From positions 1 to 64,000 of the IMG/VR virus record IMGVR_UViG_3300043419_002186: a stretch of 64,000 nucleotides of DNA; one strand, given 5' to 3'. The position numbers were made by a program, and so were the translations under genes. Of this stretch, positions 20,887 to 57,605 are shown in pieces; the first letter of the stretch is position 1; the number at the start of each line of letters is the position of its first letter. Source of the DNA: a virus. The notes below the pieces were generated by a model, which did no database searches, had not been told where the DNA came from, and saw only the letters and a list, made by a program, of their open reading frames with translations.

Positions 20887-21537
20887 ATGGCTATCCTTCG
20901 TGCGACTGATGAGACGGGCGTGTACGAGATCGAGGGCCTCGGCACCAAGATTCGTCTGCTGGAGTGGCGCGCCGGTTCGTTCTACGACACGGTGCAGTTC
21001 TCGTCGGGCGTCCAGACGCCGGGCGCGATCCAGCAGCTCTTCCAGAATCTCCAGAACAAGAACCGCCAGCATTCGAACCTCGACAACAACGCTGGCCGTC
21101 TGCCCGCGCTGAACGAGCTGATCACGAACCGCGTCGGCGCGCACATCCTGCAGGCCTTCGGCGCGACCCTCGCGCTCGACAGCGACATCATCCAGTTCGC
21201 TCACGCGGCGTACCTCCGCGTGTCCGTGAACCAGACCCGCCTGATCGCGGACGCCCCGCTCTACACGTTCCAGAGCGGCTACGGCGTGACGGGTTCCACG
21301 ACCCGCAACGGCACGGGCGTCGTGACCGTCGGCGTGCCGTCGGCCGCCGCTGCCCCGCAGCTCCTCGTCGCTCAGCCCATCGGGCCGAACGACTCCATCG
21401 GCACCGACTCGTACATCGCGCTCTACGCCAACACGTGGGCGAGCGCCTCGGGTCAGAACAACCCGGCGAACTTCGTGAACGCGGTGCAGGCCACCCTGTT
21501 CCTCGACGGTCTCGTCAAGAAGCCCGCCACGGCGTAA
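20887..21537 (+). CDS. Putative major capsid protein (single jelly-roll-like)
   Basis: 216 aa, beta-rich, strongly biased codons, long leader; FYDT...LF...K...SNL...GRLP...LFLDGL pattern; fold is inferred. Confidence 0.55.
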   Translation: MAILRATDETGVYEIEGLGTKIRLLEWRAGSFYDTVQFSSGVQTPGAIQQLFQNLQNKNRQHSNLDNNAGRLPALNELITNRVGAHILQAFGATLALDSDIIQFAHAAYLRVSVNQTRLIADAPLYTFQSGYGVTGSTTRNGTGVVTVGVPSAAAAPQLLVAQPIGPNDSIGTDSYIALYANTWASASGQNNPANFVNAVQATLFLDGLVKKPATA

Positions 21538-21641
21538 TCCGCCAAGGCGAATCGATTCCCGCTTGACGGCGGGAGTTGGTCAAGGAGGGCGATTGTCGCT
21601 ATCATGCGGCAGTCGCCCTTCGTCTTTCACAGGAGCACGTC

Positions 21642-22241
21642 ATGCAGATTGTTCCCCCGCCGCCCGACCAGTTCATCGAGACGCTGCGTTCGCGCATCGT
21701 TGAAGGTCGGACGTTCGACCCGTATCAGTACCGGCCCATCGTGATTCCGCTGCAGGTGCAGCTCGGGCCGACGGCGAGCGGCGGCTTCTCGCAGCAGGGA
21801 CAGGCGACGTTCGTCATTCCCTCGAACCAGCGTCTGCTGATTCGCCAGTTCCTGCCCATCATCACGCCCGTGGGCGTCGATGGCATCAGCGGCATGAGCA
21901 GCTCGCTCGATGCGACGAGCGGCGTGTTCAACGTCGGCGTCCCTGCGGTGGGCGACGTGCTCGCGGGCGGCACCGTGCTCGACCGCGTCCTCGGCAAGGC
22001 GCAGAACTGCCGCGTCTCCGTGTCGATGATCTCGTCCACGTTCCAGCTCTTCCCCCAGTACCAGTTCTCGCTGGGTGACCTCATCTCCACGAACTCGCCT
22101 GACACGCAGCTCGCGGACATGCCGGGAATCATCCCGCAGGGAACCACCATCGAGATGCTCGCTTCGCTGCAGGACGCGGGCGCTGCTGGCGCGACGACGC
22201 AGTACGGCATCGCCATCGTCGGAACCTACATCGCGGTCTAA
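21642..22241 (+). CDS. Second capsid-like beta protein
   Basis: AGGAG SD; 199 aa; ends TQYGIAIVG, paralogous to 22266. Confidence 0.5.
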   Translation: MQIVPPPPDQFIETLRSRIVEGRTFDPYQYRPIVIPLQVQLGPTASGGFSQQGQATFVIPSNQRLLIRQFLPIITPVGVDGISGMSSSLDATSGVFNVGVPAVGDVLAGGTVLDRVLGKAQNCRVSVSMISSTFQLFPQYQFSLGDLISTNSPDTQLADMPGIIPQGTTIEMLASLQDAGAAGATTQYGIAIVGTYIAV

Positions 22242-22265
22242 GCCGCAGCGAACAGGAGCTTCACC

Positions 22266-22889
22266 GTGGCTATCCTCACTCCCGCACCCCGGAACTTCCA
22301 GCAGCGCATCCGCTCGGAGCTGACCGAGGGGCTCGAACTCAGCTACTACGACATCATCCCGTCCATCCTGCACCTGCGCGTGACGCTGGAAGGGACGGGT
22401 GCTCGCCCCAACGTCCAAAACCCCGGTAGCGCGAGTGACATCTACCGCGTCGCTGGCGACTACAACTTCCTCATCAGCGAGATTCACGCTCACGTCGCGA
22501 TGAACCAGCTCTCGCAGGAGAGCACGGTCGGCGCGACGGGTCTGAACTCGCTCGTTGGCGTGCGCAACCGCACCGCGGTGAAGGCGATGAACGCGAAGGC
22601 GTTCCTCGTCAACCCCGACCGCAACGACCTGCGCTTCGTCGAGACGGACATTCAGAACAGCTCGAACCAGTTCGGTGGCTCGGTGATTTCGCCCCTCTCG
22701 CTCGGCTCGCTGATGCCCGAGTGCGGCGGCATGCCGATTCGCATGATCGACAAGGGCTACGTGATGCCCCTCATCGTTCCTGCGAACGAGCGCATCAAGA
22801 TGAGCGTCATCCTCCTCGACCCCAACGCGACCCTCGGGCAGACGGAGTATGGTCTGACCTGCGTCGGCGCACTGGTTCGCGCCCGCTAA
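22266..22889 (+). CDS. Third capsid-like beta protein
   Basis: AGGAG SD with GTG start; shares PxPxxF...RS, KAxN, SLGxL and TxYG with 21642. Confidence 0.5.
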   Translation: MAILTPAPRNFQQRIRSELTEGLELSYYDIIPSILHLRVTLEGTGARPNVQNPGSASDIYRVAGDYNFLISEIHAHVAMNQLSQESTVGATGLNSLVGVRNRTAVKAMNAKAFLVNPDRNDLRFVETDIQNSSNQFGGSVISPLSLGSLMPECGGMPIRMIDKGYVMPLIVPANERIKMSVILLDPNATLGQTEYGLTCVGALVRAR

Positions 22890-32566: not shown

Positions 32567-33547
32567 CTACTTCTCCCGCGGCGTCAGCACCGCGCCCGCG
32601 CTCGTCTTGTCGAAGGCGTTCTCACGCTTGTCGTACCTGTTCAACGTCTCGACCCGTTTGTGGCCCGTGACCGACATCGTGTCCGCGTCGGAGACCTTGC
32701 GGGCCCTCGCCTCCGTCACGTGGCCGCTGCGAAGCGAGTGGCCCGCGAACTCGCGAGGGTCGAAGCCCGCGCGCCTTGCGGCAATCTTCACGATGACCGC
32801 GATGGCATCCGGCGTCATGCAGCAGTCCTTCGGCTGACTGCTCCTGTTGAAGGGGCGGAAGACGGCTCCCGAATCGATTCGTGCCGCGATGAGCCATGCA
32901 CGAAGCGCCGTCGCCGCACACAGCCCGCCCCCCTCGGTGACGAAGGGAATCGCCTTGAGCATGCCCTCGCCCCGCTGGTCCGTCTTTGAGCGACGCACCG
33001 TGACGAGGACGCCCTGCTCGGACCACTTGAGGTCCTGCATGTCGAGCCCCGCCAGCTCGGACCTGCGGAACGCGCCCGCGTAACCCATGAGGATGATGGC
33101 GCGGGCCCGAAGGCCATCGAGCGTGTTCGGGTTGCAGGTCGAGACCATCTTCTCGACCTTCGCCAGCGTGGCGGGCGCCTTCGCCTGTGTCGCGATGCCG
33201 AAGGTGCGCTCGATGCCCTTCATCACGGCCTTGACCGACTCCGTGGAGCACGGGTTCGGGTGGTTCGCGATGGCGTGCATCTTCGCGATGGCCGCGAGGC
33301 GACGGCGCAGGGTCGCTGGCTTCACCCTCTTCGCGTCGTCCGCGAGGAAGGCGGCGATGGTGACCGGGTTCGCGGGCATCGGCACTGCCTTGTGGGCACG
33401 GCACCAGTCATTGAACTCGGCCCAGTCGGAGGCGTAGGCGCGCCGCGTGTTCTCGGGGATGCTGTCGCGGATGAAGTCGCGAGCCTCCTCGATGGGCTTC
33501 GCAAGTGCCGCGGGGACGGACGAATCGATTCGGATGAGGTCGCTCAT
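32567..33547 (-). CDS. Cre-like tyrosine recombinase
   Basis: NTRRAYASDW N-domain; catalytic R (FRRSEL), K (SKTDQ), HSLR, GH, Y (NRYD). Confidence 0.95.
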   Translation of the reverse strand: MSDLIRIDSSVPAALAKPIEEARDFIRDSIPENTRRAYASDWAEFNDWCRAHKAVPMPANPVTIAAFLADDAKRVKPATLRRRLAAIAKMHAIANHPNPCSTESVKAVMKGIERTFGIATQAKAPATLAKVEKMVSTCNPNTLDGLRARAIILMGYAGAFRRSELAGLDMQDLKWSEQGVLVTVRRSKTDQRGEGMLKAIPFVTEGGGLCAATALRAWLIAARIDSGAVFRPFNRSSQPKDCCMTPDAIAVIVKIAARRAGFDPREFAGHSLRSGHVTEARARKVSDADTMSVTGHKRVETLNRYDKRENAFDKTSAGAVLTPREK

Positions 33548-44347: not shown

Positions 44348-45457
44348 CTACGCGACCGTCTGAACCCCGAAGAGCTTCAGGTTCGCCGCCGCCTCGTTCT
44401 TCGTGCTGGCGCGGGGGTTGCCGCTCTTCGAGGAGCGCCACACCTGCAGCGGGCTCGAAGCGCTCGTCGCGAAGTCGCCCTGCCCGACGTTCGCCGCGGA
44501 GAGGATGACGCCCCACGCTGCATCGACGAGGAACTCCCGCTCCTTCGCGTTCGCGGCGAGCCCGTTCACGGCCTCGATGGCGCAGCCCGCGATGACGGGG
44601 TACACGTAGTCGGGGCGCGACGCGTCGGGCTTCCAGTCCACCGCGCCCGTGAGGACGTCGCGGGGCTTGGGCAGGTTCGCGCTCTTGACGTACTCACGGA
44701 ACGGACGCCCGTGGCCCTTGCCCACCGTGGCAGAGACCAGTTCGAGCCCCGACTCGGGGTCGCCGTCGCGCAGCGCAGCCGCGTAGAGGGCGCACGCGGC
44801 GTCCCACGCACGCGGGGACGGCCACGCGCCGCTGCGCTTGGACTCGTCCGCGGGGAATGCGAGCAGGGCCTTCTCCCCGAAGTGCGAGACGTAGCCGCCG
44901 ACAAGCTGCGCGGCTCGCTTGTCGAAGTCGTCGCCGTTGACGCGGTCGGTCATGAGCCACGTGGCCCACTCGGTCGGGCTCGGCACGTCGGCTTCGAGGT
45001 GGACGAGCCGGTTCGCCGCCGCGGGGGGCAGTTCGTTGCCCGCGGTCGTCATCTGCACGGGGTTCGCGGCGAGGACGATGCGCACGTCGGGGTGCAGGGG
45101 CACGTCGCCCACGACGCGTTCGAGGACGACGCGCAGCAGGGCGGACCACGTCGCGGGGCTCGCGAGCGTCGCCTCGTCAATAAACAGGGTGCCACCCTTC
45201 GAGAGCGCGGAGACCATGGTCGGCGCGAGCCGCTTGGTCTCGCCTTCCTGCGGGAAGGGGATGCCGCAGTAGTCGGTGGGGTCGGAGAGGGCGGGCATCG
45301 AGACCCACAGCGGGACACTGTCGGCCTTGGCGCCCCAGTAGCTGCGGTGCAGCGCCTTCATCATGGCGCTCTTGCCGATGCCGGGGGCACCGACGACGAA
45401 CGGGACACGGTTCGCCTTCATCGAGAGCAGCGCGAGCTTCATCCAGTGGGTGGCCAT
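44348..45457 (-). CDS. MoxR-like AAA+ ATPase
   Basis: GAPGIGKS, LFIDE, AAN, ANRLVH, PSPRAW. Confidence 0.9.
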   Translation of the reverse strand: MATHWMKLALLSMKANRVPFVVGAPGIGKSAMMKALHRSYWGAKADSVPLWVSMPALSDPTDYCGIPFPQEGETKRLAPTMVSALSKGGTLFIDEATLASPATWSALLRVVLERVVGDVPLHPDVRIVLAANPVQMTTAGNELPPAAANRLVHLEADVPSPTEWATWLMTDRVNGDDFDKRAAQLVGGYVSHFGEKALLAFPADESKRSGAWPSPRAWDAACALYAAALRDGDPESGLELVSATVGKGHGRPFREYVKSANLPKPRDVLTGAVDWKPDASRPDYVYPVIAGCAIEAVNGLAANAKEREFLVDAAWGVILSAANVGQGDFATSASSPLQVWRSSKSGNPRASTKNEAAANLKLFGVQTVA

Positions 45458-45513
45458 CGTCTCTACCTTCCCGCCCCGTAGGGCGCGCACCGTGCGGCAT
45501 GCACGGTGACCGT

Positions 45514-52211: not shown

Positions 52212-52634
52212 TCACTCAAGGTCGAGGACCCAGCCACCGAAGAAGTCGTTGGGGTCGATGCACTCGATGCCAATCGCACGTCGAAGGACCGGCTCCTCCG
52301 TCGTCCGCTGGTACTGGAGTGAGAAGACGGGGCACTTCTTTGCAAGCGCGAGCTGGATGATGAGCGCAGTCGCCTTGCCCATGCTCGTCCCGGGGACGAC
52401 GAAGCCCGAATAGACGGGCTTCAGCGTCGTCATGTCCATGCGGTTGACCACGTCGCGGCACCAGCCGCCGAAGCCTCCCGCGCTTGGCGCGTGCTTCATG
52501 TAGTCGTCGCGACCGGCGACCACGACGACGTTGTCGCCCGTGGCAGCGAACGCGAGACCGACGTCGTGGACGTCACGGTCGATTTCGGCATCCTCCATGG
52601 ACTTGGGGTGCGCGAAGAAGATGGAGTGGGTCAC
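52212..52634 (-). CDS. Hypothetical protein
   Basis: GAGGAG SD; GTG start. Confidence 0.65.
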   Translation of the reverse strand: MTHSIFFAHPKSMEDAEIDRDVHDVGLAFAATGDNVVVVAGRDDYMKHAPSAGGFGGWCRDVVNRMDMTTLKPVYSGFVVPGTSMGKATALIIQLALAKKCPVFSLQYQRTTEEPVLRRAIGIECIDPNDFFGGWVLDLE

Positions 52635-52966
52635 TGGAGCGTCTCCTCGTTCTGAGTCGATTCGGGGGCCTTGCGGAAGATGAAGACGGGGTTCGTGTCA
52701 CCGAAGTGCGCGCCGATGATGTTGAAGCCGTACCATTCGAGGGCTTCCTCCTCGGTCATGCCGTCGCGGTCTTGCAGAATCTTGAGGAGCTTCTCTCCGT
52801 CGTAGACGAGGCGCACCTTGCCTCCGAACTCCTCACCGAAGCCGATGATGGCGTCGTCGAGGCCGTCGAGGACGATGATGTTCGTATCCTCGTCCATCTC
52901 GCCCACGGTCTCCTGAATCCACTCCTCGATGGTGCTCTTCTTCTCTTCGTTCTCGTTGTCACTCAT
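52631..52966 (-). CDS. Conserved acidic phage protein
   Basis: DGLDDAIIG...VYD...DGMTEEEALEWYGFNIIGA. Confidence 0.75.
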   Translation of the reverse strand: MSDNENEEKKSTIEEWIQETVGEMDEDTNIIVLDGLDDAIIGFGEEFGGKVRLVYDGEKLLKILQDRDGMTEEEALEWYGFNIIGAHFGDTNPVFIFRKAPESTQNEETLQ

Positions 52967-53322
52967 CGGTCGTCCTCGGGAAAGTGCTGTGCCATGCACA
53001 GCGAGCAAACATGCTTCACGGCGGGGGCTGTCCAGTTGCGGTCGTTCGTGTCGCCAGCACGAACGCGAAAGTCACTCGCGGGGAGATAGCCCCAGCCATC
53101 CATCTCGGTCGCTTCGAGCACCGACTTCTGAAAGTCGAACGCGGTCTCGGTGCCCCGCGCCATCGGGTCCCACTCGATGGTGGGTTCGACGCCGAATCGA
53201 TTCCTCGCGACGCAGAAGTCGCAGCGGAGCGTGAACGCTGCGTGCATCTCCATTATTGCGCGCTCCTTGCCCTTCTTCGTAATGGTGTACGAATGGGAGC
53301 GCAGCACCCCTGCTTTGCTCAT
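52963..53322 (-). CDS. Zn-finger paralog 5
   Basis: CDFC...DGW...HVCSLC. Confidence 0.7.
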   Translation of the reverse strand: MSKAGVLRSHSYTITKKGKERAIMEMHAAFTLRCDFCVARNRFGVEPTIEWDPMARGTETAFDFQKSVLEATEMDGWGYLPASDFRVRAGDTNDRNWTAPAVKHVCSLCMAQHFPEDDR

Positions 53323-53648
53323 TCGGGAATCTCCTGCTTCACGCACTCGGGGCACGCGTGCTGGACGTTGTGGACGCGCTCCTTGAGAGGAACACGACGC
53401 AGCTTCGTTATGTGCCTCTCCAGACGAGCCCATCCATCGGGAATCGATTCGGTAGTCTCCTTCGTGCCGAAGACGAAGAGGCGCGGGTTCCTCTTCGTGC
53501 GAAGCCACTCGGGCAGCGTCAGCGAATGATTGTCAGCATCATCGGGACAGAAGTCGCAGTAGATGCCCCACTGCTTGTCCGTATCGAAGAACGACTCTCC
53601 GTACATGTTCGTCCCGTCCCTTGGGATGGAGAACATGATGAGGCTCAT
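53319..53648 (-). CDS. Zn-finger paralog 4
   Basis: CDFC...PDGW...CPECVKQEIPE. Confidence 0.7.
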   Translation of the reverse strand: MSLIMFSIPRDGTNMYGESFFDTDKQWGIYCDFCPDDADNHSLTLPEWLRTKRNPRLFVFGTKETTESIPDGWARLERHITKLRRVPLKERVHNVQHACPECVKQEIPE

Positions 53649-53908
53649 TCGGGAATCTCCTGTTTCACGCACGTGGGGCACATCCACATCGTGGTGCCGT
53701 GCAGCTTCTCAATCACGTGCCAGCCATCGGGGAGCGACCAGCCCTTCGCAATCCACACGCGACCGTACGCGCACCAAAAGCACAGATGCCAGTAGCCGCG
53801 GGGGCGGGACCCGCTCGCGTCGCCATCCTCGGAATGCGCGAGCCTGATGCGAACGCCTTGGTCGTTCTCGTAGAGCCCGGGCTCGCCGGGGATGGCACGG
53901 AGCGTCAC
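53645..53908 (-). CDS. Zn-finger paralog 3
   Basis: CFWC...PDGW...CPTCVKQEIPE. Confidence 0.7.
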   Translation of the reverse strand: MTLRAIPGEPGLYENDQGVRIRLAHSEDGDASGSRPRGYWHLCFWCAYGRVWIAKGWSLPDGWHVIEKLHGTTMWMCPTCVKQEIPE

Positions 53909-54291
53909 TCAGGAATCTCCGTCTTCGCACAGTCGGGGCACATGTAGTGCGCGGGCCTGTCGGGCTTCGCTGCGTCCTCAACGAGGTGCCACCCGTCCTG
54001 CAGGTCCTCGTTGAGCAGGTGCCTGTTCTCGTCGCACCAGTAGCAGCGGATGGTCAGTGTGCCGGTTGCGGGACGCTTGATGAGGCCGTCGAGAAAGATG
54101 GTGAAGATGCCGCCCGCATCATTGGAAGCGTCGGGACCGATGTTCATCGGGACGAGGTACTGAGGCGCCGTGACCGCTGACGCGATTCCCGGTGTCGGAG
54201 GCCGCAGCCCGTGGGTCGCCGCTTCCGCAGTCCACTTCGCACGCTCTTCGTCCGAGAGGCTCTCCCAGTAGGCGTCCACGATGTCACGCAT
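53905..54291 (-). CDS. Zn-finger paralog 2 carrying a capsid-protein-like segment
   Basis: CYWC...DGW...CPDCAKTEIPE; contains TIFLDGLIKRPAT. Confidence 0.7.
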   Translation of the reverse strand: MRDIVDAYWESLSDEERAKWTAEAATHGLRPPTPGIASAVTAPQYLVPMNIGPDASNDAGGIFTIFLDGLIKRPATGTLTIRCYWCDENRHLLNEDLQDGWHLVEDAAKPDRPAHYMCPDCAKTEIPE

Positions 54292-54460
54292 CGGAGCGCT
54301 TCCCGTCGAGGGAGTCGATGTACTCGACCAGCTCCGTGTAGTGGTGCTCGTTCGCAAACCATGCGCGCAGCGTGGCGCGGCCCTTGGGCGTCATCTCGCG
54401 AATGTCCTTCTTGATGCTCTCATCGAGCAGGGGCTCTTCGCGAATCGATTCGTCAGTCAT
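54284..54460 (-). CDS. 58-aa hypothetical protein (not in ORF track)
   Basis: MTDESIREEPLL...; overlaps both neighbours. Confidence 0.55.
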   Translation of the reverse strand: MTDESIREEPLLDESIKKDIREMTPKGRATLRAWFANEHHYTELVEYIDSLDGKRSDA

Positions 54461-54653
54461 CGCTCTTCCCCTTCGCGAGGCAGTCTCCGCACGTCACCTT
54501 CTCGTCGTGCTTGTCCATCTGCGTCCCCGGCACCCACGTCAGTCCGCAGAGCGGCGCCCACGTCTTGACGACCACGAAGTCTTTCGGCTTCAGCCCTTTG
54601 ACGTGTACTTCCTGCTCCGCGGTGACGACGGCCTTGTGAACCTTCTCAGTCAT
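54453..54653 (-). CDS. Small Cys-containing protein
   Basis: PLCG...VTCGDC; AAGGA SD. Confidence 0.6.
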   Translation of the reverse strand: MTEKVHKAVVTAEQEVHVKGLKPKDFVVVKTWAPLCGLTWVPGTQMDKHDEKVTCGDCLAKGKSDD

Positions 54654-54981
54654 TTTCGAATCCTTCTGCTCGAACGCATGCAGGGCACGCGTCGAGCGTG
54701 TGTCTGTGGTTTCGCATCTGGAGCTGCCCAAACGTGAACGGTTCGAGAGCTGCGATGATCTTCCATCCGTCCGCGTATCCGTCCCCGTCTTGAAGCAGCC
54801 CGTTATCGCCCATTTCAACCTTGCGGCTCTCGCAGTAGTCGCAGGTGACAACCGTCGCGACGAAGCCTTTTCCTGCCGGGTAGCGCTTCTCATCCGTCAC
54901 CCGCTCCACTCTCCCCATGCCGTCGGAACCCGGAATGACGTTGAGCTTGATGGGGGCGTGCATTTGGTAGGCGCGACTCAT
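54646..54981 (-). CDS. Zn-finger paralog 1
   Basis: CDYC...DGW...ACPAC. Confidence 0.65.
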   Translation of the reverse strand: MSRAYQMHAPIKLNVIPGSDGMGRVERVTDEKRYPAGKGFVATVVTCDYCESRKVEMGDNGLLQDGDGYADGWKIIAALEPFTFGQLQMRNHRHTLDACPACVRAEGFEND

Positions 54982-57605
54982 CACACGTCTGCCCACGTCT
55001 TTCCTGTCTTGGGCTTGGCGGCGAACTCGACGCCGTCGAGTCCCCACACCGCACGGTTCATGTGCTTCTTGAGCATCTTCTCGACCCACTCGGCTTCGCT
55101 CTCGGGGCACTCCACGTAGAGCGCGTCGTGCACCTGCGAGATGAGGCCCGTGTTCGGTCCCCACTTGCCGAAGGGAATGTCCTGCAGGAGGTCGAAGGTG
55201 CTCTCATGGATGATGTGCGCACCCGCACTTTGAATGGGGTGGTTCACGATTTCATTGAACGCCTCGCCATCGAGGAAGTCGCGCTGACGGCCCCACACGG
55301 GGTCTCGCACGTAGCCCTTCTCTCGGAAGCCCTCGACGGTCTTGTCCCACCACTTCGGAAGCTCGGGGATTCCCTTGAGCCAGTTGCGCTTGAGCGTCGC
55401 GACCTCGCGCAGCGTCAGGTCCGGGTACATCAGGTTCCCGTTCTCGTCCTCTGCCGATGTGACGAGGTTGTGCACCGTCTCGTCGCCTGAGCCGTAGAAC
55501 GAGGCGTACTTGATGCCCTTCGCAATCTTGCGCAGCTTGTCCCACATGTCACTCTTCGGCTGCAGCGCATCGAACTTCGCGCCAAACATCAGCGAAGCCG
55601 TCATCGCGTGCGGGTCCTTCTTCGCAGCGAACGCTTCGAGGTAGATGCGAATCTGCGCGATGGCAGTGATGATGCGAAGCTCAAGCTGGTCAGCGTCCGC
55701 TCCGACGATGACGTTCCCCGGCGCAGGGATGATGAGCTTGCGCAGGTGCTTGGGCCAGTTCTGCGCGTTCGGATTCGAGCTGCTCAGGCGACCTGACGTG
55801 GTGCCATGCGCGTTGTAGTCGGGGCGCACACGGCCATCGAGCGAGATGAGCCCCCGCTGCGCCTCCTCCTGCTCATCCTCGCTCGCGAACTGGAAGCCGT
55901 CGAGAGGAGAGTTGTAGGGGATGAGGCGGCGAACGTAGGTGCCGTATTCCTTCGCCACGCGGCGGTAGCGGCGCAGCGTGTCGAGGAACGCGACGACCTG
56001 CTCCTTGTTCTGAACGGACGGGTCATCCTTCACGCCCGCGCGCATGAGACGAACGCACTCGTCGTTGGTCGAGGGGTCGCCCAGCTTTGTGTAGTCCGCG
56101 GGAGGGAGAGACCACTCCTCGAAGAGCAGGTCCCGAAGCTGAGGGACGCTGTTCATGTTGATTTCGCGTCCGAGAATCGATTCGGCGTGCTTGCGGAAGT
56201 GCGCAATCTTCGTGAGCAGCTCCTTCGCAGCCACATCGCGAGCGGCGCGGTCAACGAGGAGCCCGTTCTCATGGAGGCCAACGCAGACCTCCTGCACCTT
56301 GTGGTCCTTCTTGACGACGCTCTCCTGCTGACGCTCGACCACGGCGCGCGAGAGCTGGGGAACCACGCGAGCGGTGACGACGCAGTCCACCGCGTTGTAG
56401 TGCTGCAGCTCCTTGTCCGTGCTCGCCTCCGTGGCCGTGTGCGCGTCCTTCCAAGCGACCACGTCCGTGTAGATGGAGCCGACGTATCCGAGCTTGTGCG
56501 GCAGCTCAGGCTCGACGCAGCGGTGCAGGAGGATGGTGTCGATGAGCGGCTTCGGGTCCACGCCGAAGTGCTGCTTGATGACCATGCGGTCGAAGTAGCC
56601 CGCGTTGTGGCCAATCTTGAGCTTGTTCGGGTCCGAGAAGAAGTCGCGCAGGATGGAGCGCATCTCCTCCACCTGACCGCTGGTGTACTGCGGAGGAGGA
56701 ATGAGCGCGCCGCCGGGGCCCTCGATGGAGAGGAAGGGGACGACGATGGCGCCGTACTCATGCCCGATGCCCACGGTCTTGAGCTTCGCGACCATCGGGT
56801 CATCGACGGTGGTCTCGACGTCGAACGTGTAGTCGATGTCGGTGCGAGCGACGAAGGCGCGCAGCTCGTCGGGCGTGGGAAGCAGCTTGATTTGTGGCTC
56901 TCGCCAGCCGAGGCCGACGGTGAACCATCGGTAGGCGCGCGAGAGGTCCGAGCGGAAGGCGCGTGACCAGCGACGCGTGCGCATCACGAAGGCAGGATGC
57001 AGCGTCGGGAGCACACGAATGGCGAATCGATTCGGGTCCTCCGTCTCCGAGAGGAAGTCGTTCGCGTCGTTGAGGAAGGCCTCCACGGGACCACCGCGGA
57101 TGTCCATGATGGAGCGCTGCTTGCGCGTCAGGGCCGTGTAGGGGACCTTGCCCAGCGTGATGATGCGCTGCATCCCCATCAGCTCGTTCATCAGGCGGGG
57201 TCGGCAGCACTCGATGGGAGAGGGCAGGAGGGCTTCGCCCTTTTTGGCGAGCTTCTTGTTCGCCCGCTGCCACTTGAGCATGACCTTGTCGAGGTCGTTC
57301 TCGGGAGCGCGGCAAGCGACGGCGTGGTGCAGGTTCATCGACTGACGACGGATGCCGAGCGCCTTGAGAGCGTTCGTGAACTCCATGCCACCAGCGCCGG
57401 TCAGGGGACGCCCCGTCTCGCACTCCTTCTCAGCGGGCGCCTCAGCGATAACGGCAATCTCCGCATCCTCGCGAAGTTCGGGTCCCACGGGACCACCTTC
57501 TCGCGAGGTGCGGAGAGTGCATTGCGCGCAGTTGGCACCGAGCTTCTCGGGGTCGTAGGTCCCCTCGTTGTACATCTGAAACAGCAGCGCTCGCGTGCCG
57601 TTCAT
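54981..57605 (-). CDS. polA: Family A DNA polymerase with N-terminal UDG-like and 3'-5' exonuclease domains
   Basis: FDVET and HNAGYFD exonuclease motifs; TTSGRLSSSNPN, ADADQLELR, RKIAKGIKY, QVHDAL; UDG-like EAP...GRP...HPAF. Confidence 0.95.
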   Translation of the reverse strand: MNGTRALLFQMYNEGTYDPEKLGANCAQCTLRTSREGGPVGPELREDAEIAVIAEAPAEKECETGRPLTGAGGMEFTNALKALGIRRQSMNLHHAVACRAPENDLDKVMLKWQRANKKLAKKGEALLPSPIECCRPRLMNELMGMQRIITLGKVPYTALTRKQRSIMDIRGGPVEAFLNDANDFLSETEDPNRFAIRVLPTLHPAFVMRTRRWSRAFRSDLSRAYRWFTVGLGWREPQIKLLPTPDELRAFVARTDIDYTFDVETTVDDPMVAKLKTVGIGHEYGAIVVPFLSIEGPGGALIPPPQYTSGQVEEMRSILRDFFSDPNKLKIGHNAGYFDRMVIKQHFGVDPKPLIDTILLHRCVEPELPHKLGYVGSIYTDVVAWKDAHTATEASTDKELQHYNAVDCVVTARVVPQLSRAVVERQQESVVKKDHKVQEVCVGLHENGLLVDRAARDVAAKELLTKIAHFRKHAESILGREINMNSVPQLRDLLFEEWSLPPADYTKLGDPSTNDECVRLMRAGVKDDPSVQNKEQVVAFLDTLRRYRRVAKEYGTYVRRLIPYNSPLDGFQFASEDEQEEAQRGLISLDGRVRPDYNAHGTTSGRLSSSNPNAQNWPKHLRKLIIPAPGNVIVGADADQLELRIITAIAQIRIYLEAFAAKKDPHAMTASLMFGAKFDALQPKSDMWDKLRKIAKGIKYASFYGSGDETVHNLVTSAEDENGNLMYPDLTLREVATLKRNWLKGIPELPKWWDKTVEGFREKGYVRDPVWGRQRDFLDGEAFNEIVNHPIQSAGAHIIHESTFDLLQDIPFGKWGPNTGLISQVHDALYVECPESEAEWVEKMLKKHMNRAVWGLDGVEFAAKPKTGKTWADV

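Follow-up and report, generated by a model that had tools for sequence, protein, structure and literature searches.

A C-terminal fragment of a jelly-roll capsid-type gene carried by a small Zn-ribbon gene in an uncultured freshwater virus

The stretch analysed here (the window) comprises the first 64 kb (64,000 nucleotides) of the 85,791-bp IMG/VR record IMGVR_UViG_3300043419_002186, a genome of approximately 65% G+C that ends in 127-bp direct terminal repeats and is rated complete by CheckV. The stretch is present in only two sequencing runs, which represent one freshwater metagenome sample, probably its source, and has no variants there; no RNA sequencing runs containing it are listed. The 127-bp terminal repeat falls inside a glycine/alanine-rich ORF of about 400 aa that spans the record ends (1-318 and 84717-85791). 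The genome is divided into two arms of opposite polarity, and the gene considered here, P0001, lies in a tandem array of small Zn-ribbon genes directly downstream of the gene for DNA polymerase A (PolA):

1-32 kb, plus strand: virion arm, including the endolysin
32-64 kb and beyond, minus strand: replication arm, with integrase, ParB-like protein, ATPase, SbcC-like protein, PolA, primase and helicase
32567-33547, minus strand: tyrosine integrase (phrog_1, E 5e-18)
44348-45490, in the replication arm and away from the virion arm: ATPase (phrog_1297)
52963-54981, minus strand: array of five Zn-ribbon paralogs and two small genes
54646-54981, 53905-54291, 53645-53908, 53319-53648 and 52963-53322, minus strand: the five paralogs, with the pattern CxxC...DGW...CPxC
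53905-54291, minus strand: P0001 gene, 128 aa (53908-54291) plus stop; ATG at 54291, stop codon at 53905-53907
54211-54291, minus strand: N-terminal helical part of P0001, residues 1-27 (MRDIVDAYWESLSDEERAKW...); predicted helices 4-11 and 14-27, pLDDT 75-87
54124-54195, minus strand: block 1 of P0001, residues 33-56 (TPGIASAVTAPQYLVPMNIGPDAS), copy of the capsid G-strand region; pLDDT <50
54064-54105, minus strand: block 2 of P0001, residues 63-76 (FTIFLDGLIKRPAT), copy of the capsid terminal strand I; pLDDT <50
53908-54063, minus strand: Zn ribbon of P0001, residues 77-128, CxxC...DGW...CPxC...EIPE
54981-57605, minus strand: PolA, with an N-terminal UDG-superfamily domain and a 3'-5' exonuclease domain

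From N- to C-terminus, P0001 thus consists of helices, a linker derived from the capsid protein and the Zn ribbon. Its ATG overlaps the stop codon of the upstream gene (ATGCGTGA), its own stop codon overlaps the GTG of the downstream gene (GTGA), and all of its orthologues begin with MRDIV. Similar junctions recur along the array (53645-53660, 53319-53330, 53905-53910), where stop and start codons overlap as ATGA or GTGA and a GGAG Shine-Dalgarno sequence is embedded in the codons of ...EIPE; the conservation of the C-terminus may therefore partly serve translational coupling. By its four Cys ligands, its DGW motif and its match to the family profile, P0001 belongs with the tandem Zn-ribbon paralogs. 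The profile recovers paralogs at E 4.6e-11 and 2.1e-6, and its match to the other four is confined to the ribbon part, in agreement with an earlier note on this DNA, which had stated that the other Zn-ribbon paralogs lack the capsid-like segment. No match above noise (Z <=3.0) was obtained for the Zn ribbon or for the whole of P0001 in Pfam, PHROGs, PDB sequences, the ESM Atlas or the VIA fold search. The same note had called the gene early, a timing that is suggested by its place in the replication arm next to PolA.

The other partner in the comparison, P0003, is encoded in the virion arm:

20887-21537, plus strand: P0003 gene, 216 aa (20887-21534); single jelly roll, capsid candidate, member of the family that donated the segment
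21325-21396, plus strand: capsid block 1, residues 147-170 (TVGVPSAAAAPQLLVAQPIGPNDS), a meander into the short G strand 163-165
21397-21489, plus strand: H strand and variable HI loop of the capsid protein (residues 171-201), which P0001 lacks
21490-21531, plus strand: capsid block 2, residues 202-215 (ATLFLDGLVKKPAT), within the terminal strand I (200-213)

The AF2 model of P0003, built with 92 homologues, is a single jelly roll (pLDDT 93.1, pTM 0.87) in which one helix accompanies the long strands 25-38, 77-87 and 200-213; the H strand lies at 176-179, and the region 171-201 is the block of lowest pLDDT (74). The best neighbours of the model in VIA are capsid proteins of internal-membrane viruses (Helvetiavirae, Portogloboviridae), namely those of SPV1 (6oj0_T, Z 8.2, 138 residues aligned), HHIV-2 (7.1), HCIV-1 (6.8) and P23-77 (VP17, Z 6.5; VP16, Z 5.2), although such scores, Z 5-8, are within reach of generic, unrelated jelly rolls, and Foldseek agrees only weakly (TM 0.36-0.43). 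P0003 shares its fold and size class with SPV1 VP4, with the HHIV-2 and HCIV-1 proteins and with P23-77 VP16/VP17, and its gene is clustered with those of several small beta proteins; no HK97 capsid, portal or terminase is detectable in the genome. It differs from them in sequence, the identity of 9-11% amounting to no sequence similarity, and its 86-kb genome is far larger than theirs. The fold of P0003 is predicted with high confidence, and the protein is best regarded as a putative jelly-roll virion protein and capsid candidate. Its assignment as the major capsid protein is only plausible, since it is followed by two more genes, paralogous and each coding for about 200 aa. These two genes (21642-22241 and 22266-22889) are mutual paralogs (24% identity) and are syntenic in relatives; P0003 itself was rejected as a sequence paralog of them, with no similarity detected (hhalign Prob 0.5%). 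P0003 is the best conserved of the three consecutive genes (20887-22889) across relatives, at 69-78% versus 42-66%.

Homologues of P0003, a large and uncharacterized family, form at least 135 clusters at 50% identity, nearly all of 205-235 aa. Those at E <=1e-20 number at least 116 clusters when grouped at 90% identity, and contigs of 64-110 kb encode several of these; further relatives of the capsid clade numbered only three in IMG/VR, with none in species genomes. Across the wide family an LxG(L/I)(I/V)K motif terminates nearly every member, G208 is near-invariant, and the HI-loop region is rich in indels, whereas the clade of P0003 (at least 64% identity) shows almost no variation in either block. 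No PHROG or Pfam match to terminase, portal or HK97 capsid was detectable for any large ORF of the whole 85.8-kb genome, and this result, together with the capsid-type homologues on 64-110 kb contigs, suggests a viral lineage that combines large genomes with jelly-roll shell proteins. This uncultured freshwater virus is probably tailless. The tyrosine integrase and the IMG/VR classification of one relative (G002) as a provirus suggest that the virus group may be temperate.

P0001 and P0003 share two collinear blocks, P0001 residues 33-76 corresponding to P0003 residues 147-215. The earlier note had reported a copy of the capsid C-terminus in the Zn-ribbon gene, and this copy is real (BLASTP E 4e-7), with coordinates and counts that proved exact: window positions 54064-54189 (minus strand) encode P0001 residues 35-76, and 21331-21531 encode P0003 residues 149-215. 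Block 1 is identical at 12 of 22 residues within these bounds, or at 13 of 24 when the preceding T and one more residue are included; block 2 is identical at 10 of 13 residues, or at 10 of 14 over its full extent. The blocks are separated by 7 aa in P0001 and by 32 aa in P0003, such that the middle is deleted, as had also been claimed, the lost part being the H strand and HI loop. A pairwise alignment with a shuffle test, which had been proposed as a check, gave a Smith-Waterman score of 84 against a shuffle mean of 27.1 (sd 4.3, maximum 57), and none of 2000 shuffles reached it. In an all-against-all comparison of the 213 ORFs of the whole 85.8-kb genome, the pair was among only five non-self matches at E<1e-3. 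On these sequence statistics, chance resemblance is excluded. A repeat at the DNA level was rejected as the cause, the nucleotide identity of 61-71% being limited to the coding blocks.

P0001 carries these blocks as a fragment and is not a member of the P0003 family: the complete eight-strand jelly roll of about 200 residues is absent, and only residues 33-76 align with that family. A profile search enlarged the P0001 family to 11 members, and the alignment of this family to the capsid clade by hhalign (Prob 96.5%, E 7.7e-10) covers both blocks, in which P0001 bears the C-terminal capsid motifs GVPSxAAxPxLxxxQxI and LxGxIKKP. In three other viruses, too, the Zn-ribbon family profile matches the C-terminus of the capsid-type gene (E 1.6e-6 to 2.5e-4). 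The family of proteins of about 215 aa, with at least 135 clusters, has the motif as an ancestral feature, compared with 11 Zn-ribbon carriers, which indicates a direction from capsid to Zn ribbon. These comparisons support the capture of a fragment of a capsid-type gene by a small Zn-ribbon gene. Against the wide capsid family, hhalign gives only E 1e-4 over block 2 alone, and the Zn-ribbon segments match own-clade capsids (at least 64% identity) at 23-25 of 38 positions versus 6-17 outside the clade (Spearman 0.85-0.90). Profile comparison and clade-specific residues thus point to a capsid-type gene of P0003's own clade as the donor. Many synonymous positions were said to differ between the two copies, and the same codon is indeed used at only 11 of the 23 identical residues; since the codons are scrambled, the capture is old. 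A fusion of a full capsid protein with a Zn ribbon, as an ancestor, was not found among the 135 cluster representatives, the longest of which end with strand I.

The gene has a patchy distribution among relatives. The array fills a 2.35-kb island (52635-54981) between PolA and a conserved gene (52212-52634), and the corresponding gap between PolA and the next conserved gene measures 0.3 kb in G003, 0.8 kb in G001 and 1.2 kb in G002. These three intervals contain other small genes or nothing, with no Zn-ribbon genes, and in G003 (a complete genome), G001 and G002 both P0001 and the family profile match the capsid gene alone. Because G003 lacks it, as do the islands downstream of PolA in G001 and G002, the P0001 gene is accessory. 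The island after PolA is an apparent hotspot of accessory genes. Viral, metagenome and genome collections were scanned with three queries (the family alignment, P0006 and a degenerate TIFLDGLIKRP pattern) and yielded no other carriers, and among IMG/VR records none besides this one encodes the motif outside the capsid gene.

Within the Zn-ribbon family the two blocks have fared differently. The three close homologues of P0001 (43-61% identity) retain both. Over all 11 members, block 2 has the highest mean pairwise identity of all regions (0.78, 55/55 pairs), followed by the N-terminal helices (0.61, 36/55 pairs), the Zn ribbon (0.43, 55/55 pairs), block 1 (0.42, 28/55 pairs) and the spacer (0.19, 47/55 pairs). 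TIFLDGLIKRP is invariant or nearly so in 11/11 members, with T64, F66, L67, G69 and I71 invariant, as are C83, C86, G100, W101, C118 and C121 of the ribbon; the position of capsid K212 is fixed as R. The members are too divergent to be recent copies of one another. To judge from these alignments, block 2 is clearly under very strong selection. By contrast, block 1 is kept in 5-6 of the 11 members, is degenerate in two and has been deleted in three, the losses falling in the more distant members. Thus, the absence or decay of the segment in relatives, which the earlier note had taken as the mark of a neutral relic, is not seen for block 2, retained by all 11 members, and is seen in part for block 1.

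The genome has a third match to the strand-I motif, [LIVM]FLDG[LIVM]x[KR][KR], at about 74462 (minus strand), which was rejected as a probable chance occurrence; the G003 orthologue reads VTVAGLPAHG at this site, which is not conserved. The copy lies outside the window in a GNAT-like + DUF5661 protein (P0262, genome 74211-74849) as VLFLDGLPKKG.

In the standard jelly-roll topology, the copied G and I strands would belong to the BIDG sheet. They are predicted to be core elements of the jelly roll, and strand I (L-F-L-D-G-L-V, hydrophobic on alternate faces) would be buried in the folded protein. The earlier note had described the segment as a captured capsid epitope. The capture is borne out by the homology and its direction; the epitope is not, because the parts copied are the G-strand region and the strand I core, and the loss of the variable loop with retention of the constrained core motifs is the opposite of what an exposed epitope would present. 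Structure prediction of both proteins, also suggested at that stage, gave a confident jelly roll for P0003 and a different picture for P0001. In the AF2 model of P0001, residues 30-75 have pLDDT <50, compared with 63-87 for the flanks with the same alignment, although this alignment is shallow, with just 11 sequences, and may account for part of the low linker confidence; the ESM Atlas model is likewise poor. The ribbon (79-125) reaches pLDDT 63-81, with strands within 79-117. Block 2 directly adjoins the first ribbon strand (TIFLDGLIKRPATGTLTIRCYWC), but the model packs the capsid-derived segment on neither the ribbon nor the helices. The most conserved motif of P0001 is thus predicted to sit in a stretch that does not fold by itself, and a conserved motif in a predicted unfolded stretch is a pattern typical of motifs that fold on binding.

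From these properties we infer, tentatively and at somewhat less than an even chance, that P0001 acts by strand mimicry, its target being either unassembled capsid protein or a factor that reads it. A binding element is the best reading of a strand that is natively buried, hydrophobic on both faces, invariant and displayed in a predicted unfolded linker. A feasible model may be as follows. P0001 is a chimera, in which the 3' part of a jelly-roll capsid-type gene of the virus's own clade was joined to one member of the tandem Zn-ribbon array; the insert was then trimmed to the two most constrained capsid motifs, of which strand I has been held by very strong selection. In P0003, strand I would be hydrophobic on both faces and locked between strands B and D, whereas the copy in P0001, placed in a linker predicted not to self-fold, could act as a mimic that folds upon binding, with the helical N-terminus and the Zn ribbon as a handle. 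The partner might be an unassembled or nascent capsid subunit, contacted at its B and D strands by strand competition or by a donor-strand-like complementation, or else a factor that recognizes unassembled capsid protein. Since the gene is dispensable and absent from close relatives, a conditional role is favoured over an essential assembly step or a chaperone. This role may be interference with the capsid assembly of a co-infecting or resident relative of the clade, or alternatively restraint of premature assembly of the virus's own capsid. The model makes a demanding requirement, namely that a buried strand could be mimicked only against unfolded or strand-swapped subunits, and block 1 is dispensable in half of the family. 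It is also tempting to speculate, as a possibility that we hold with more doubt than the strand mimic itself, that the unfolded strand copy is a weapon in an undescribed lineage of large (75-110 kb), apparently tailless jelly-roll bacterial viruses, capping the jelly-roll subunits of related viruses and thereby excluding them at the level of assembly, or blinding a host sensor.

Several other readings compete with the strand mimic. One that we consider rather doubtful, without being far-fetched, is an exaptation unrelated to the capsid, in which the strand has become a structural or oligomerization element of the Zn-ribbon subfamily, paired with the first strand of the ribbon or forming homo-oligomers, and serves for example nucleic-acid or protein binding in the replication arm. 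The direct junction of block 2 with the ribbon strand, invariant in 11/11 members including those that have lost block 1, is in keeping with such a role, as are the motif's stricter conservation among Zn-ribbon family members than across the capsid family at large and the fixation of R at the K212 position; on the other hand, the AF2 model places the segment (pLDDT <50) against neither ribbon nor helices, four paralogs form the ribbon without it, and the second collinear capsid motif of the nearer members is left unexplained. The earlier note had thought of a decoy for capsid-sensing immunity. P0001, made before the capsid protein, would then occupy a host sensor of invariant C-terminal capsid motifs without triggering it. 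Capsid peptides are known triggers of defence, as with T4 Gol and Lit, and the capsid protein with CapRel; the copied blocks are the least variable capsid parts in the clade and would make good sensor targets; and an accessory gene of patchy distribution, in a variable island of diversified small paralogs in the replication arm, is a frequent setting of anti-defence genes. Nevertheless, a decoy is unlikely, given that strand I would be buried in the folded protein, that there is no known sensor for this capsid motif, and that a literature search yielded no phage-encoded capsid-fragment decoy.

Still less probable is a tether, by which the strand would dock the Zn-ribbon protein into or under the capsid lattice as a minor component, linking for example DNA or an inner layer to the shell. 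An assembly motif common to P0001 and the shell protein would suit this function, Zn ribbons are often nucleic-acid binders, and the internal proteins of T4 are an example of targeting sequences by which non-structural proteins enter capsids; however, the gene resides in the replication arm instead of the virion arm (1-32 kb, plus strand), and close relatives that have the same capsid genes lack it. The least credible of these readings, to which we attach hardly any weight, is a neutral recombination relic, as the earlier note had also allowed, or a chance resemblance. The decay or disappearance of block 1 in distant members is compatible with neutrality, the repeated gene junctions of the array could favour illegitimate recombination, and one copy of FLDGLxKK in this genome did turn out to be probably due to chance. 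Yet no part of the family, whose members share only 30-60% identity, is better conserved than block 2, which contradicts a relic; synonymous sites have become scrambled although the protein sequence has been maintained; and chance is excluded by the shuffle, all-against-all and profile statistics alike.

The proposed strand mimic would be a case of motif mimicry, with an accessory protein imitating an assembly protein, in an uncharacterized virus lineage. In chaperone-usher pili, a strand from another protein completes or occupies a beta-sandwich and controls polymerization (donor-strand complementation and exchange). There is no homology to that system, and pilins lack their own last strand, whereas P0003 possesses its own strand I. 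Mouse Fv1 and dominant-negative Gag or capsid fragments are captured, selected capsid pieces that act on the capsids of related viruses. By contrast with these animal host genes, which encode folded capsid domains, P0001 is a virus gene with about 40 capsid-derived residues and without the fold. CpmB of SaPI1, the closest documented precedent for such a logic, competes with the scaffolding protein of phage 80alpha for its site on the capsid protein (PMC5644958). P0001 resembles CpmB as a small accessory protein with a short motif common to an assembly protein, terminal in CpmB and here found to be shared with P0003, and by analogy this motif may likewise compete for a site on the capsid protein and redirect assembly. 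The two differ in that CpmB is a satellite-encoded mimic of a scaffold helix acting on a capsid protein of the HK97 fold, while P0001 is a virus-encoded, putative binder in which a core beta-strand of a jelly roll is fused to a Zn ribbon.

If the binding were true, P0001 would stand as a clear example from nature of how a virus can turn about 40 residues of its own shell protein into a regulatory or competitive peptide, and it would imply that a single strand could block or time jelly-roll assembly. It would also provide a bait-and-prey handle on the capsid biology of an uncultured group without annotated structural-gene relatives. Even if the segment had no function, the locus indicates that tandem arrays of small Zn-ribbon genes can acquire and fix fragments of structural genes. 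Elsewhere in the genome, outside the window (67725-70391), a SNF2-type helicase of 888 aa contains an HNH-endonuclease-like insert at about residues 330-400, which is possibly an intein or a homing element.
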